IMG/VR virus record: IMGVR_UViG_2534681999_000014 | Span: 1-6,229 of that record | From: a virus | Taxonomy: Duplodnaviria > Heunggongvirae > Uroviricota > Caudoviricetes | Direction: 5' to 3' (one strand) | DNA: 6,229 nt | In this document: positions 1 through 5,111 of the stretch, piece by piece | How positions within the stretch are numbered: the stretch's first letter is position 1 | Layout: each line of letters opens with the position of its first letter | Program-made: the position numbers and the translations under genes | Notes under the pieces: generated by a model | What the model was told of the DNA's origin: nothing | The model's database searches: none | What the model saw: the letters and a program-made list of their open reading frames with translations, nothing else

Positions 1-142
1 ATTTTGTGATGCAGTGCCTGGTGCCTCCAGGTGACGTTAACCAGTTAACAATTAACGCCGGATACAGAGAATCCACCCATAACACTGTTTTTGGTTTTAA
101 CTGTTCCGCGTGCGCTTAGCCGCATTCACCGCATCACAAAAT
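1..142. repeat. Perfect 12-bp inverted repeat pair, ATTTTGTGATGC (1-12) and GCATCACAAAAT (131-142), flanking about 118 bp
   Basis: Seen directly: 131-142 is the exact reverse complement of 1-12. The left arm touches the window edge, so it may extend beyond the window. Function unknown. Confidence 0.5.
36..57. repeat. Three GTTAAC-core palindromic motifs at 8-bp spacing (GTTAAC 36-41, GTTAAC 44-49, TTAACG 53-57)
   Basis: Seen directly in ACGTTAACCAGTTAACAATTAACGCC. Regular spacing of a self-complementary hexamer suggests a protein-binding array; this is inference only. Confidence 0.35.
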
Positions 143-232
143 TCACTTTAAAAAGGGCGGCAGAGCAGTCACGGAGTAAAACTGATACCGCCAAATGTCA
201 CCAGAAAATTGATAACAGAGGGCGTTGTAGCG

Positions 233-1304: not shown

Positions 1305-1490
1305 GTTGACCTCATTTCCCCTTAACGCCGGGTAGCGGAACAAAAACCTGCTGCATCGTTATTAAAGTTGAACCCTGCCGTCATGTTCATACGCCTCGGG
1401 CTGGCTACTTACCCCCTGACCACTGCTTGGTAACTCGAAGTATTGCCCGGCGTTCTGTGGGGCGGGGTGGGTGGTTGGTGTATGTAATCT

Positions 1491-1530
1491 ACAATAAAAA
1501 ACTGTTTTTGTGTCAACAGTTTTTAATTGT
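1491..1530. promoter_or_regulatory. OL-like operator: two 15-bp ACA-N9-TGT sites (ACAATAAAAAACTGT 1491-1505; ACAGTTTTTAATTGT 1516-1530) with a TTGACA -35-like hexamer on the minus strand in the spacer (plus coordinates 1511-1516)
   Basis: Seen directly: the first site is identical to the site at 2526-2540 and the second differs by 1 nt from 2550-2564. The location leftward of the repressor operon and upstream of the leftward DUF1391 gene matches the lambda OL/pL position. Confidence 0.6.
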
Positions 1531-1540
1531 TGTTTTGGGC

Positions 1541-1563
1541 AAAAAAATCCCTCGAAAGAGGGA
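1541..1563 (-). terminator. Rho-independent terminator for the minus-strand repressor-antitoxin-toxin operon
   Basis: Minus strand reads TCCCTC-TTTC-GAGGGA followed by TTTTTTT: a perfect 6-bp stem (1548-1553 / 1558-1563) with a 4-nt loop and a 7-U tract (1541-1547), starting 18 nt after the ParE stop codon (1584-1582). Confidence 0.55.
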
Positions 1564-2489: not shown

Positions 2490-2500
2490 TATTCAATTTT

Positions 2501-2564
2501 ACAGGTAAATACTGTTAAAAGCATCACAATAAAAAACTGTTGATTGCATACAGTTTTTTATTGT
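2501..2564. promoter_or_regulatory. OR-like tripartite operator: 15-bp ACA-N9-TGT sites at 2501-2515 (ACAGGTAAATACTGT, weakest), 2526-2540 (ACAATAAAAAACTGT) and 2550-2564 (ACAGTTTTTTATTGT), centres 24-25 bp apart; divergent promoters embedded
   Basis: Seen directly: 2526-2540 and 2550-2564 are perfect reverse complements of each other. A -35-like TTGATT (2540-2545) lies in the spacer between them on the plus strand, and TATAGT (2575-2580) is a strong -10 candidate upstream of the ydaS-like SD GAGGAGG (2587-2593). On the minus strand, TAAAAT (plus 2496-2501) lies 6 nt from the repressor ATG. Confidence 0.65.
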
Positions 2565-2597: not shown

Positions 2598-2870
2598 ATG
2601 CTAGATAGCACTCGCGAAAAAATTAGGCAGAAATACACTCAGGCTGAAATAGGTCGTTATATGGGGGTCGCTCAACAGACTGTTTGGCAATGGTTTAGCT
2701 TTGGCGTTCCCCCAAAGCAGGTAATTCCGTTATGCCAACTAATGAAGTGGGAAGTTACCCCGCATGAAATCCGCCCAGATATTTATCCTAACCCAACCGA
2801 CGGTTTACCTGTTGGATGTAAGGTTAACACATCAAATGCGCCGGAGTTGATTCATGAAAATCAAGCATGA
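2598..2870 (+). CDS. ydaS: Cro-like small DNA-binding protein, YdaS family
   Basis: 90-aa ORF with strong SD GAGGAGG 4 nt upstream. HTH region AEIGRYMGVAQQTVWQWF followed by VIPLCQLMKWEVTPHEIRPDIYP resembles E. coli Rac YdaS as I recall it (…PAIERATRGEVLCEELRPDIDW). Divergent from the repressor. Confidence 0.75.
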   Translation: MLDSTREKIRQKYTQAEIGRYMGVAQQTVWQWFSFGVPPKQVIPLCQLMKWEVTPHEIRPDIYPNPTDGLPVGCKVNTSNAPELIHENQA

Positions 2871-3279
2871 ACACATCCGCATGGCGATGAATGCCTGGGC
2901 GCATCCGGACGGCGAAAAAGTACCGGCTGCGAAAATTACCAAAGCGTATTTCGAGCTGGGAATGACGTTCCCGGAACTGTATGACGACAGCCATCCGGAA
3001 GCCATGGCTCGCAATACTCAGAAAATTTTCCGCTGGGTGGAGAAAGACACTCCTGATGCGGTTAAAAAAATTCAGGCGTTGTTACCAGCGATCGAAAAAG
3101 CGATGCCGCCTCCGCTGGTGGCCCGAATGCGCAGCCACAGTTCCGCTTATTTTCGGGAGTTGGTAGAGACGAAGGAACGGCTGGTGAAAGATATTGATGA
3201 TTTCGTTGCATCAGCGATCGTTCTGTTCGATCAGATGAATCGTGGTGGCCCGGCAGGAAACACTCTGGCTGTGCATTAA
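2854..3279 (+). CDS. ydaT: YdaT-family protein (CII-like functional analog)
   Basis: 141-aa ORF starting MKIKHEHI and ending ...VH, with a central KIQALLPAI segment; these match the start, end and central motif of E. coli YdaT as I recall it. SD GGAG 7 nt upstream of the ATG. The start overlaps the ydaS-like 3' end by 17 nt. Confidence 0.75.
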   Translation: MKIKHEHIRMAMNAWAHPDGEKVPAAKITKAYFELGMTFPELYDDSHPEAMARNTQKIFRWVEKDTPDAVKKIQALLPAIEKAMPPPLVARMRSHSSAYFRELVETKERLVKDIDDFVASAIVLFDQMNRGGPAGNTLAVH

Positions 3280-3292
3280 TTGGGTAATAAAT

Positions 3293-3802
3293 ATGAGTAA
3301 TGACAAAAAATTGACACTGAGCGTTTACGAAAACAGTCCGCACATCTGGCGTGGCGGTTTATCTGATGTGGAGCTGGCAGAGTGGTTGATACATAAAGCT
3401 AATGCGCTGCTCTGGCGTTTGTCAGCCAGAGAACAGCGCAAGGAAACCAGAATAAAGCTGGCTGATGCAGAAGCGTGTGCCGGGCTTATTGAGGATTATA
3501 CAAATCTTGGTATTTCTTCAGCAGAGAGTGATCCCATTCAGCCTCTGAGCAGGGAGTCAATCCAGCACGCTGGTTGTATGGCACATCTTGTAACTGCTCG
3601 TCAACATGAGGTGGGTATTGGATCACTTCCGGCGGGATATTCGCTGATTCCAGAGCTGGTTGAAGCAAGAAAATCAGTTCAGAAAAAGAGAGATGACGCA
3701 CTTCAATTATTGAGAGAGCACTATGGCGCGATACCAGAATGCGAACAGCGTCGATACCCTGAAGGTTATGAATGGATGCAGTCTCTTTTTGAAGTTCGCT
3801 AA
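3293..3802 (+). CDS. Hypothetical protein, 169 aa, unknown function, inserted between the ydaT-like and replication genes
   Basis: Track ORF 3242-3802. The first ATG is at 3293 (MSNDKKLTLSVYENSPHIWRGG...), 14 nt after the ydaT-like stop; the region 3242-3292 overlaps the ydaT-like 3' end in another frame. Same orientation as the early-right operon. SD weak. No family recognised. Confidence 0.5.
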   Translation: MSNDKKLTLSVYENSPHIWRGGLSDVELAEWLIHKANALLWRLSAREQRKETRIKLADAEACAGLIEDYTNLGISSAESDPIQPLSRESIQHAGCMAHLVTARQHEVGIGSLPAGYSLIPELVEARKSVQKKRDDALQLLREHYGAIPECEQRRYPEGYEWMQSLFEVR

Positions 3803-4019: not shown

Positions 4020-5111
4020 ATGCGTGATTACGCAAAAGTTTCTCCGCGATTCTGGCTGGGAGAAACGGGGAGAGAACTTAGAAAGGCGGGTGCAGAAGCG
4101 CAAGTTGTTGCTTTTTACCTGATGACATCCCCTCACGCAAATATGCTGGGTTTGTATTACCTGCCAGTTTTATACCTTGCTCATGAAACCGGGCTTGGTC
4201 TGGAAGGGGCTTCAAAGGGGCTTAAAAGGGCTGTTGAAGCTGGTTTTTGTAGCTATGACCATGATGCAGAGATGGTCTGGGTCCATGAAATGGCAGCCTG
4301 GCAGGTTGGGGAAACGTTGAAGCCTGGCGATAACCGTTGTGCAGGTGTCAGGAATGAGTATGCATCATTACCTGAAAACGCTTTTCTGTCAGTGTTTTAC
4401 GACAGATATAAAACGGATTTCCATCTGGATGTGAGGCGGAATAATAGCCGAAATTCGGTAAGGGGCTTCGAAGGGGCTTTTAAGGGGCTTCGAAGCCAAG
4501 AACAGGAACAGGAGCAGGAGAAAGAACAGGAACAGGACAAAAACACTATGGTTCATGGCAAAAAAAACACCACGAACCAGGCAGGGGATGTTCAGACCGT
4601 CAATCCTGGTCAGCCAGCAGGCACGACACCGGAAGCCGATTCGGGCGCTGTGCAGCAGGTGATGACCGCAGGGTCGGAGCAATCACACCAACTGCAGCAG
4701 CCTGAAGCCGATTCCGCCATTCAGCGGGAAGCCGATCGGGTAGTCCCGGAAAGCACCGGGCAGTCTGTGGGACGAGTGGATTATCCGGATGTGTTCGAAC
4801 AGGTCTGGCGGGAATACCCGTTGCGTGCTGGGGCAAACCCGAAGAAATCCGCTTTCAGTGCCTGGAAGGCCAGATTGCGCGAGGGGGTGCCACCAGAGAC
4901 CATGCTGGATGGTGTGAGGCGTTACGCGAGATACCTGGCGGCGACCGGGAAAGCGGGAACGGAATTTGTTCAGCGAGCGACGACGTTTTTTGGGCCGGAC
5001 CGGAATTTTGAAAACCCCTGGTTGCTCCCGGTAAGCGGCACGAACAACCAGCGTTGTGTGAATCATATTTCTGAACCGGATACCGAAATTCCGCCGGGAT
5101 TCAGGGGGTGA
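4020..5111 (+). CDS. Phage replication initiation protein (lambda O-like / YdaU-position), with an internal Gln/Glu-rich linker and a conserved phage C-terminal domain
   Basis: Track ORF 3909-5111. The ATG at 4020 has SD GAGG 5 nt upstream, while ATG 3909 has none, so the start is placed at 4020 (MRDYAKVSPRFWLGETGRELRKAG...). The C-terminal segment DVFEQVWREYPLRAGANPKKSAFSAWKARL...ATTFFGPDRNFENPW resembles the conserved C-terminal domain of phage replication proteins (from memory). Position immediately upstream of the DnaC-like gene. Contains DNA iterons (see repeat features). Confidence 0.7.
   Translation: MRDYAKVSPRFWLGETGRELRKAGAEAQVVAFYLMTSPHANMLGLYYLPVLYLAHETGLGLEGASKGLKRAVEAGFCSYDHDAEMVWVHEMAAWQVGETLKPGDNRCAGVRNEYASLPENAFLSVFYDRYKTDFHLDVRRNNSRNSVRGFEGAFKGLRSQEQEQEQEKEQEQDKNTMVHGKKNTTNQAGDVQTVNPGQPAGTTPEADSGAVQQVMTAGSEQSHQLQQPEADSAIQREADRVVPESTGQSVGRVDYPDVFEQVWREYPLRAGANPKKSAFSAWKARLREGVPPETMLDGVRRYARYLAATGKAGTEFVQRATTFFGPDRNFENPWLLPVSGTNNQRCVNHISEPDTEIPPGFRG
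4204..4233. repeat. Iteron cluster A: AAGGGGCTT at 4204-4212 and 4215-4223 plus a degenerate copy (AAAGGGCTG, 4225-4233), 11-bp period
   Basis: Seen directly in GAAGGGGCTTCAAAGGGGCTTAAAAGGGCTG. Copies are read in three different reading frames (EGA / KGL / KRA), arguing for DNA-level rather than protein-level selection. Confidence 0.45.
4460..4490. repeat. Iteron cluster B: three perfect AAGGGGCTT copies at 4460-4468, 4471-4479 and 4482-4490 (exact 11-bp period), with palindromic CTTCGAAG cores; candidate replication origin inside the initiator gene
   Basis: Seen directly in TAAGGGGCTTCGAAGGGGCTTTTAAGGGGCTTCGAAGCC. The three copies are translated in three frames (RGF / EGA / KGL). Immediately followed by the linker-coding repeat and an A-rich stretch (4539-4570). 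Lambda ori is likewise a set of iterons inside the O gene. Confidence 0.5.
4500..4541 (+). repeat. In-frame hexamer array (GARCAG)n encoding the QEQEQEQEKEQEQD low-complexity linker
   Basis: Seen directly: GAACAG x2, GAGCAG, GAGAAA, GAACAG x2, GACAAA. The period is a multiple of 3 and is read in one frame, so this is a protein-level flexible acidic linker between the N- and C-terminal domains. Confidence 0.6.

Follow-up and report, generated by a model that had tools for sequence, protein, structure and literature searches.

Results

Gene content of the window

The window, the whole 6,229-bp stretch of viral DNA analysed here, returned DUF1391, ParE_toxin, PaaA2, HTH_3, YdaS and YdaT in a Pfam search. 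Because of this gene content, together with matches in the structure database, we assign to it a lambdoid PaaR-PaaA-ParE/YdaS-YdaT immunity region. On the minus strand, ydfA (1152-1304; Pfam DUF1391, E = 2.8e-29) is the first gene of a leftward operon, and its product is 96% identical to YdfA of K-12. The gene for the small RNA DicF, also on the minus strand (155-206; Rfam RF00039, 77 bits; gathering score, 48), is predicted to belong to the same leftward transcription unit as ydfA, farther downstream. To the right of ydfA, and again on the minus strand, are a ParE-family toxin gene (1582-1869; Pfam ParE_toxin, E = 2.9e-17), a PaaA-type antitoxin gene (1869-2060; Pfam PaaA2, with PaaA2 itself, PDB 3zbe, matched at E = 1.4e-20) and a repressor gene of the PaaR/DicA type that encodes 133 amino acids (2088-2489; Pfam HTH_3). 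The plus strand carries ydaS, which encodes a Cro-like regulator (2598-2870; Pfam YdaS), the CII-like ydaT (2854-3279; Pfam YdaT, with YdaT of CP-933P, PDB 8bt1, matched at E = 1.4e-82) and, after ydaT, a replication module that includes a DnaC-like ATPase (Pfam). An exact copy of the YdaT operator, TTGATT-N6-AATCAA, sits at 2847-2864, at the end of ydaS and the ydaS-ydaT junction, a position that agrees with the published description (PMC9986795).

The repressor combines a helix-turn-helix (HTH) N-terminal domain with a conserved C-terminal domain and is without an S24 peptidase domain. It aligns with PaaR2 in BLASTP (42% identity, E = 1e-20) and with DicA at E = 6e-12; its overall identity to the repressor of the CP-933P type was 37% in an alignment of relatives, mostly in the C-terminal domain.

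The segment from 1582 to 2489, which spans repressor, antitoxin and toxin, matches numerous E. coli O157:H7 chromosomes at 100% identity, and the annotation of its neighbours there (ECs1072 family) leads to what the literature describes as the CP-933M homologue of paaR2-paaA2-parE2. At >90% identity this block is found in about 500 of 5,426 complete E. coli genomes, O157:H7 included, and the best match to the window as a whole among complete E. coli genomes covers 88% of it at 99% identity. These sequence matches identify the window as the immunity region of an E. coli lambdoid prophage of the CP-933M/paaR1 type, with a leftward operon that corresponds to dicBF of Qin. A plus-strand open reading frame (ORF; 522-1037) breaks into the leftward operon of the window. 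Like a second ORF at 3293-3802, it matched only PHROG families of unknown function and had no match in PADLOC.

Left and right operator modules

An earlier note on this DNA, made from the sequence, had claimed that a module of about 40 bp, nearly identical to the two strong right operator (OR) sites, recurs about 1 kb to their left, with one site identical and the other carrying a single mismatch. Our searches bear out each part of this claim. With up to three mismatches allowed, ACAATAAAAAACTGT had exactly four matches in the 6,229-bp window: at 1491-1505 (plus strand, no mismatch), 1516-1530 (minus strand, one mismatch), 2526-2540 (plus strand, no mismatch) and 2550-2564 (minus strand, no mismatch). 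Chance alone would give 0.28 matches, and none of 200 dinucleotide-preserving shuffles reached four. The left pair consists of OL1 (1491-1505), a 15-bp site of the form ACA-N9-TGT with the same sequence as both strong OR sites, and OL2 (1516-1530), the inverted 15-bp copy ACAGTTTTTAATTGT, whose sole mismatch is at base 1525; their centres are 25 bp apart. The right pair (2526-2564), of which the left is an inverted copy, consists of OR2 (2526-2540) and OR1 (2550-2564). The sites follow the consensus ACAAT(A/T)AAAAACTGT, and five of the six occurrences of ACA-N9-TGT in the window fall in OL or OR.

The left module is located 1035 bp left of OR. A repeat search returned each pair of sites as an inverted repeat and also matched the two modules to one another, with 1489-1505 being 100% complementary to 2550-2566 (CTACAATAAAAAACTGT) and 1513-1530 being 94% complementary to 2526-2543. 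The copied stretch extends beyond the sites themselves, to CTGTTGA, which includes the start of a -35 hexamer, and to TTGTAG, at the edge of a -10 hexamer. The pairwise comparison of the modules that the note had called for, made here between the minus strand of 1476-1545 and the plus strand of 2511-2580, gave two identical blocks, CACAAT.AAAAACTGTTGA and ACAGTTTTTTATTGTAG. The only divergence is in the 7-8 nt core of the spacer and in a 1-nt indel, with 10 bp between the sites at OL and 9 bp between those at OR.

At OR, the rightward promoter pR comprises the hexamers TTGATT (-35, 2540-2545) and TAGGCT (-10, 2564-2569), spaced by 18 nt. A probable third site, OR3 (2501-2515, ACAGGTAAATACTGT), matches the consensus at 11 of 15 positions; it is 25 bp centre to centre from OR2 and has the same orientation. 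This candidate overlaps TAAAAT (2501-2496), which lies 7 nt before the repressor ATG and is presumed to be the -10 hexamer of a leaderless repressor promoter (pRM), by analogy with paaR2, for which an OR3 and a leaderless promoter have been mapped. A search for a third site at OL found none: only two ACA-N9-TGT sites are present there, and the flanks, where a further site would have to sit, are the least conserved columns of the alignment described below. A set of three adjacent sites, known from lambda, Qin and CP-933P, is characteristic of lambdoid left operators but not indispensable to them.

Putative leftward promoter, terminator and leader

The left module was said to lie upstream of the leftward DUF1391 gene, and it does, 187 bp from the ydfA ATG (1304); it comes directly after the stop codon of parE (1582) and the terminator that follows that gene. 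Read along the minus strand, the order of elements is the parE stop, the terminator, OL2, TTGACA, OL1 overlapping TAGATT, the leader, ydfA and DicF. TTGACA (1516-1511, minus strand), which can be read directly from the sequence and agrees with the consensus at 6/6 bases, is the putative -35 hexamer of a leftward promoter, pL, and all six of its columns are invariant in relatives. TAGATT (1491-1486, minus strand) is the putative -10 hexamer, with 4/6 bases in agreement and five of six columns invariant. The note had also drawn a parallel between a minus-strand TTGACA between the two OL sites and the TTGATT between the OR sites. This parallel is close: five of the six bases of TTGACA lie in the spacer, its first T being the last base of the right-hand site (the first base of OL2 in window coordinates), and the two hexamers occupy equivalent places, each starting on the last base of the promoter-distal site. 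At the other end of the promoter, OL1 shares one base with the -10 hexamer, namely the first base of that hexamer.

The spacing between the pL hexamers is 19 nt in the lineage of the window and 18 nt in most relatives, which have a 9-bp inter-site spacer. A consensus scan of the window did not report pL, because 19 nt is outside the accepted range of 16-18 nt. In the relative from strain IHE3034 (L002), which has the 9-bp spacer, TTGACA-18-TAGATT (10/12) was the sole promoter-like site in 1.5 kb. Given the 19-nt spacing and a -10 hexamer that agrees at only 4/6 bases, pL may be weak in the lineage of the window.

The operator module is preceded by an intrinsic terminator of the paaR-paaA-parE operon (1538-1563, minus strand), composed of a hairpin (1563-1548) and a T-run. 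Its stem is G+C-rich, and it ends 8 nt before OL2. A hairpin with a T-run, variable in both loop and stem, is present at the same position in all of the immunity types compared below.

Downstream of pL lies a predicted leader (1305-1479, minus strand), whose start at about 1479 is placed from the position of the -10 hexamer. Its first 10-15 nt or so are variable, and they are followed by about 165 nt, starting ACCCACCCCGCCCC, that are conserved across immunity types as far as the ribosome-binding site of ydfA. The conserved leader (1305-1472) had no Rfam match at E ≤ 1, and its folding energy was no better than that of shuffled sequences (z = +0.87); leader sequences vary too little among loci for a covariation test. 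The leader also contains a 22-codon ORF, the frame of which is not conserved between loci.

Conservation within the immunity type

When IMG/VR was scanned with an exact pattern, 40 contigs (41 stretches) proved to carry the module, and 26 distinct sequences from them were aligned. Because these contigs were retrieved by an exact match to the module, the conservation of OR in this set is biased; the state of OL is nonetheless a fair observation, as every contig could be retrieved through the OR module alone. The two modules are 1034-1037 bp apart on 35 contigs. On two others the distance is 683 bp, because most of the toxin-antitoxin pair has been deleted, and the repressor, terminator, OL and OR are all intact; the module is kept in L023 and L032 despite the loss of most of the toxin-antitoxin genes. 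In one contig of 48,151 bp, OR and OL lie near opposite ends, at distances of 845 and 190 nt, respectively. As these distances sum to the usual 1035 bp, the contig suggests a circularly permuted, complete phage genome.

Among the 26 distinct sequences, OL1, OL2 and the -35 and -10 hexamers are 80-100% invariant, set between flanks that vary far more: only 24-29% of the 17 nt on the left and 9% of the 11 alignment columns on the right (window 1531-1540) are invariant. By column, 12 of 15 are invariant in OL1, 14 of 15 in OL2 when the divergent contig L041 is left out, and 14 of 15 in the OR3 candidate. Within the sites, it is position 6 that takes base substitutions (A, T or G), both in OL1 and in OR3, as expected for a position that is not contacted by the protein. 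Most relatives have T at position 6 of both OL sites and a 9-bp spacer; the lineage of the window, which is of the O157:H7 type, has A in OL1 and a 10-bp spacer, that is, a 1-nt insertion. In L041, the second OL site is in direct orientation.

Comparison of four immunity types

Complete E. coli genomes yielded relatives of the repressor-antitoxin-toxin block at 91%, 72-76% and 67% identity; with the window, these comprise four immunity types: A (the window, L001 and L002), B (L003 and L004), C (L005) and D, the CP-933P type (L006 and L007). The operators of these types are unrelated in sequence, being TAACTTTAAAAGTG-like in B, AATAG.A.TGCTATT-like in C and of the GTTTAGTAA type in D, against the ACAAT(A/T)AAAAACTGT of A. 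All four types nonetheless have the same order of elements, from the parE stop through the terminator, a site, the -35 hexamer, a second site, the -10 hexamer and a variable stretch to the conserved leader. In the other types the -35 position is occupied by TTGACA, TTGACT or TTTACA. The two OL sites of type B are direct repeats, arranged around a TTGACA at the same position.

In each type, OL best matches the OR of its own type, at 14-17 of 17 positions compared with 11-14 of 17 for the other types. The C-terminal domain of the repressor is nearly invariant across types (24 invariant columns), the N-terminal HTH domains differ, and the HTH region of YdaS varies with immunity type. The specificity elements, namely OL, the N-terminal domain of the repressor, OR and the N-terminal domain of Cro, therefore co-vary across the four types. 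Simple linkage within one divergent block does not account for the match between OL and OR, because the DNA that lies between OL and the N-terminal domain, which encodes the toxin, the antitoxin and the C-terminal domain of the repressor, is about 70% conserved between types. On this sequence comparison, the own-type match indicates selection for a shared binding protein. Degenerate patterns derived from the repressor alignment were also used to scan contigs for further immunity types, with one irrelevant locus among the matches listed.

Discussion

A proposed operator-controlled leftward promoter

We propose, with a probability of roughly 85%, that the segment from 1486 to 1530 is the OL/pL of a CP-933M/paaR1-type lambdoid prophage and that binding of the repressor there would block pL. 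The earlier note had regarded the module as the hallmark of a lambdoid OL/pL, a reading now supported by the gene content of the window, by the own-type match between OL and OR in four immunity types and by the precedents of CP-933P and Qin. The sequences show the anatomy of the locus, its conservation and its co-variation with immunity type; binding, repression, a transcription start and looping are inferred, as follows. A sigma-70 promoter, bracketed and overlapped by OL1 and OL2, would fire leftward from a start near 1479, and its transcript would run through the conserved leader into ydfA, DicF and probably dicB, beyond the window. Dimers of the 133-residue HTH repressor on OL1 and OL2 would cover both hexamers of pL and exclude RNA polymerase, as they would on OR1 and OR2, and the Cro-like YdaS probably binds the OL sites too. 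The terminator (1563-1538) would prevent the repressor-antitoxin-toxin transcript from extending into the leftward genes, so that a lysogen would keep its cell-division inhibitors silent.

The four dimers on OL1, OL2, OR1 and OR2 could additionally join as an octamer, looping out the 1-kb segment that encodes the repressor and the toxin-antitoxin pair. Such OL-OR looping is plausible by analogy, because the C-terminal domain of the repressor is conserved and octamers of PaaR2 have been reported. Two further features bear on it: the presence of four strong sites and the constancy of the OL-OR distance (1034-1037 bp on 35 contigs). In a more elaborate form of the proposal, each palindrome of 39-40 bp would hold a tetramer, the OL and OR tetramers would join as an octamer, and the loop would couple expression of the addiction module to silencing of DicF and DicB. 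We consider this form unlikely; if it were true, the 1-nt spacer insertion in the lineage of the window would retune both the strength of pL (from 18 to 19 nt between hexamers) and the geometry of the loop (from 24 to 25 bp between sites).

Alternative explanations

The alternative that survives best departs from OL/pL in its emphasis. Each 39-40-bp palindrome might be one composite operator for a two-fold symmetric tetramer, and OL might serve mainly as a distal anchor for a loop that tunes pR and pRM. The symmetry of the type A sites fits this idea, as the half-sites ACAAT and ACAGT make each site asymmetric and the paired sites mirror one another about the centre of the spacer at OL and OR alike; so do the reported octamerisation of PaaR2 (PMC8630535), the conserved C-terminal domain with its 24 invariant columns and the presence of exactly four strong sites in the window. 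A composite, mirror-symmetric operator is, however, hard to reconcile with the direct repeats of type B, with the direct orientation of the second OL site in L041, with an OR3 that is oriented like OR2 and with an inter-site spacing that is not fixed but is either 24 or 25 bp. Moreover, the hexamers of the OL promoter are invariant, which argues that promoter control is the selected function. Taken together, these points make it improbable that the palindrome acts as a single unit with OL as an anchor.

It is also conceivable that the module no longer functions and is a scar, left by duplication of or recombination with OR in a decaying cryptic prophage, with weak or no binding and no transcription. 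Many carriers are cryptic prophages, the 1-nt insertion in the lineage of the window brings the promoter spacing to 19 nt and the inter-site spacer to 10 bp, and in the window the plus-strand ORF at 522-1037 splits the leftward operon. However, in 26 distinct sequences the sites and the two promoter hexamers are conserved although the DNA on either side is highly variable, and the same layout is built from four unrelated operator sequences; neither would be expected of a scar. The 48-kb carrier contig, with ends that meet within the immunity region, points to a complete phage genome, and in CP-933P and Qin the homologous promoters are active and can be repressed. We therefore regard a functionless remnant as very unlikely.

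Least credible of all is that the inverted repeat at 1491-1530 works in RNA, as a hairpin that backs up termination of paaR-paaA-parE read-through, and not as an operator: its minus-strand RNA does fold into a 15-pair hairpin (-14.2 kcal/mol, z = -4.4), 8 nt past the canonical terminator, and the same repeat in L002 was flagged as terminator-like by a scan (16 pairs), but the stem is A+T-rich with only three G-C pairs and a 10-nt loop, the hairpin of the window is followed by AGAUUACAUAC with no U-tract and was not reported by the terminator scan of the window, the same palindrome occurs at OR between divergent promoters (-17.9 kcal/mol), where a terminator would serve no purpose, the direct repeats of type B have no hairpin potential (z = -0.9, compared with -4.4 and -4.8 in type A), and a G+C-rich terminator is already in place at 1563-1538. 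On these grounds (A+T-rich, without a U-tract, present at OR and absent from type B), we rejected a terminator or hairpin identity for the OL palindrome.

Relation to known systems

Assigning OL and pL to this locus is the standard reading for a module in such a position, correct but ordinary, and it involves no new mechanism, as the same arrangement has been shown experimentally in CP-933P and Qin. Four details are particular to this locus: OL has two sites, the sites follow an ACA-N9-TGT model, the spacer has gained 1 nt in this lineage, and a conserved leader follows pL. In our literature search, no published description of operators for this immunity type came to light. The assignment provides a pL/OL control element for a very common E. 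coli immunity type, and it predicts which repressor silences the toxic DicF/DicB operon of this prophage. The model of bistability and looping put forward for CP-933P could also be tested in this sister prophage.

The closest precedent is CP-933P, a cryptic prophage of E. coli O157:H7. Its leftward promoter, PL933P, adjoins the paaR2-paaA2-parE2 operon downstream of parE2, carries OL1-OL3 and has -35 and -10 hexamers identical to those of PR933P; PaaR2 and YdaS each lower the expression of a PL933P-gfp fusion about 100-fold, and PaaR2 octamerises in solution (Jurenas et al. 2021, mBio, PMC8630535). The window shares with this prophage the succession of repressor, PaaA antitoxin, ParE toxin and then a leftward promoter that copies the operators and hexamers of pR. 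It also shares ydaS and ydaT divergent from the repressor gene, the same conserved leader downstream of the promoter and a repressor that has the conserved C-terminal domain and is without a peptidase domain. The operators, by contrast, are unrelated, with a GTTTAGTAA-type consensus there (as in OL and OR of L006 and L007) and ACAAT(A/T)AAAAACTGT here, and because the N-terminal domains of the repressors differ, the two prophages are heteroimmune. Further, three OL sites are reported for CP-933P, compared with two in the window, and the downstream ORFs are without assigned function in CP-933P, compared with ydfA and DicF here.

For Qin, a cryptic prophage of E. coli K-12, earlier work summarised in PMC10448788 describes dicBp as a PL-like promoter that DicA represses, its operators lying between it and dicA. 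Deletion of dicA derepresses dicBp 22-fold (Ragunathan et al., J Bacteriol 2023, PMC10448788); for dicBp and its operators, see also Bejar et al. 1988 (as cited in PMC10448788) and Yun et al. 2012 (PMC3441716). As proposed for the window, ydfA, dicF and dicB are transcribed in that order from a promoter placed between ydfA and the repressor gene; as in the window, the repressor is of the DicA type with no RecA-mediated cleavage, YdfA is 96% identical and DicF is present. Qin differs in having neither toxin-antitoxin genes nor a terminator between dicA and dicBp, and in its operators, which are of the type TTGTTAGTCATAACTAACAA and are described as three in number, against two at OL of the window. 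At the equivalent place the K-12 locus has TTGACC-17-TAATCT, and the leader of Qin is short, with only its last 40 nt or so in common with that of the window.

A resemblance to phage 434 is of a different kind. Among solved structures, the best match to the HTH domain of the window repressor is the 434 repressor (E = 3e-5), and in both proteins the recognition helix begins with Gln-Gln. The window sites begin with ACAA or ACAG and end with TTGT or CTGT, and so resemble the operators of 434, of the form ACAA-N6-TTGT; they differ in length, at 15 bp compared with 14 bp. Type B repressors have Gln-Gln too, yet their operators are different. In phi467, the N-terminal domain of the repressor is 54% identical to that of the window, and a search of its locus found no ACA-N9-TGT sites. 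Because of the Gln-Gln of type B and the unrelated sites of phi467, the likeness to 434 is no evidence for a shared recognition code. Prediction of operators from HTH similarity was set aside, having failed on phi467, where an HTH of 54% identity goes with unrelated sites.

A comparison can also be made with phage lambda. Its sites are 17 bp long and its OL has three of them, compared with 15-bp sites and two at OL in the window, and the C-terminal domain of the window repressor is not homologous to that of CI and is without the RecA-dependent cleavage module. OL and OR are about 2.3-2.4 kb apart in lambda, compared with 1.03 kb in the window. Lambda OL and OR are looped together by an octamer of CI, an arrangement that may also apply to the present locus. 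In both, an early promoter (putative here) that points leftward beyond the repressor gene is overlapped by copies of the operators at OR, and non-essential genes (rexAB in lambda, paaA-parE here) lie between the repressor and OL. Adjacent sites are spaced by 24-25 bp in both, and in both four strong sites are available for an octamer.

Left operator, deletion variants and a probable complete phage genome

The window's lineage departs from its relatives in the left operator itself. Comparison of the window with the IHE3034 locus (L002) and the IMG/VR viral contig stretches L010-L050 showed that the spacer between OL1 and OL2 (1506-1515) contains an extra T, giving it a length of 10 bp rather than 9 bp, a feature found in 6 of the 40 viral contigs. 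This one nucleotide lengthens the pL spacing from 18 nt to 19 nt and the centre-to-centre distance of the OL sites from 24 bp to 25 bp. OL1 (1491-1505) in the same lineage also has A rather than T at position 6.

Two viral contig stretches, L023 (7487-8208) and L032 (5136-5857), lack about 352 bp inside paaA-parE, which places OL and OR 683 bp apart versus 1035 bp. Despite the deletion, repressor, terminator, OL and OR are all intact in both, indicating that the addiction module can be lost while the switch is kept. Two others, L013 and L015, come from a single 48,151-bp record, IMGVR_UViG_2617270976_000012, with 845 nt between OR and one end and 190 nt between OL and the opposite end; these distances add up to the usual 1035 bp. 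The record probably represents a complete phage genome of the window's immunity type in circularly permuted form.

The repressor of phage phi467 (L051) is 54% identical to the window's in its N-terminal domain, yet no ACA-N9-TGT sites were found at the phi467 locus, and its intergenic regions (L051 2340-2530 and 3170-3360) have ATCAAGT-like repeats instead. At that level, therefore, similarity of the HTH does not predict operator sequence.

Right operator and the leader before ydfA

A probable OR3 (ACAGGTAAATACTGT, 2501-2515) overlaps a TAAAAT -10 hexamer (2501..2496). Because this hexamer is only 7 nt upstream of the repressor ATG (2489), the arrangement suggests a leaderless repressor mRNA, like those of paaR2 and lambda cI. 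Further right, a predicted operator for the CII-like YdaT (TTGATTCATGAAAATCAA, 2847-2864), which matches the published operator exactly, sits where ydaS and ydaT meet, overlapping the start codon of ydaT.

On the minus strand, pL and ydfA are separated by a leader of about 165 nt (1305-1472) that is near-identical in all four immunity types. It opens with a C-rich run, ACCCACCCCGCCCC, exactly at the border of the immunity-specific DNA, and this 5' run could base-pair with the ribosome-binding region of ydfA (GGGGAAAUGAGG). The leader had no match in Rfam, and its folding energy was not better than that of shuffled sequences (z = +0.87). K-12 Qin shares only its last ~40 nt.

Other features of the window

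Downstream within the leftward transcription unit are the DicF small RNA gene (155-206, minus strand; Rfam, 77 bits) and, adjoining it, a partial STnc100-like match (1-153, minus strand) whose 32.9 bits fall under the family's gathering score. Convergent with this operon is a plus-strand ORF (522-1037) of phrog_1244, a family without assigned function; its product combines a coiled-coil region with a C-terminus rich in Cys, and PADLOC returned no match for it. Relatives have ydfB and ydfC at this place. As a 26-nt inverted repeat flanks the ORF (arms 485-510 and 1039-1064), it looks like an inserted cassette.

Finally, GGGGCTT(C/T)(A/G)AAGGGGCTT units recur in direct and inverted orientation at 4199-4240 and 4455-4507, inside the O-like replication gene, where they look like origin iterons and resemble those of the lambda ori.
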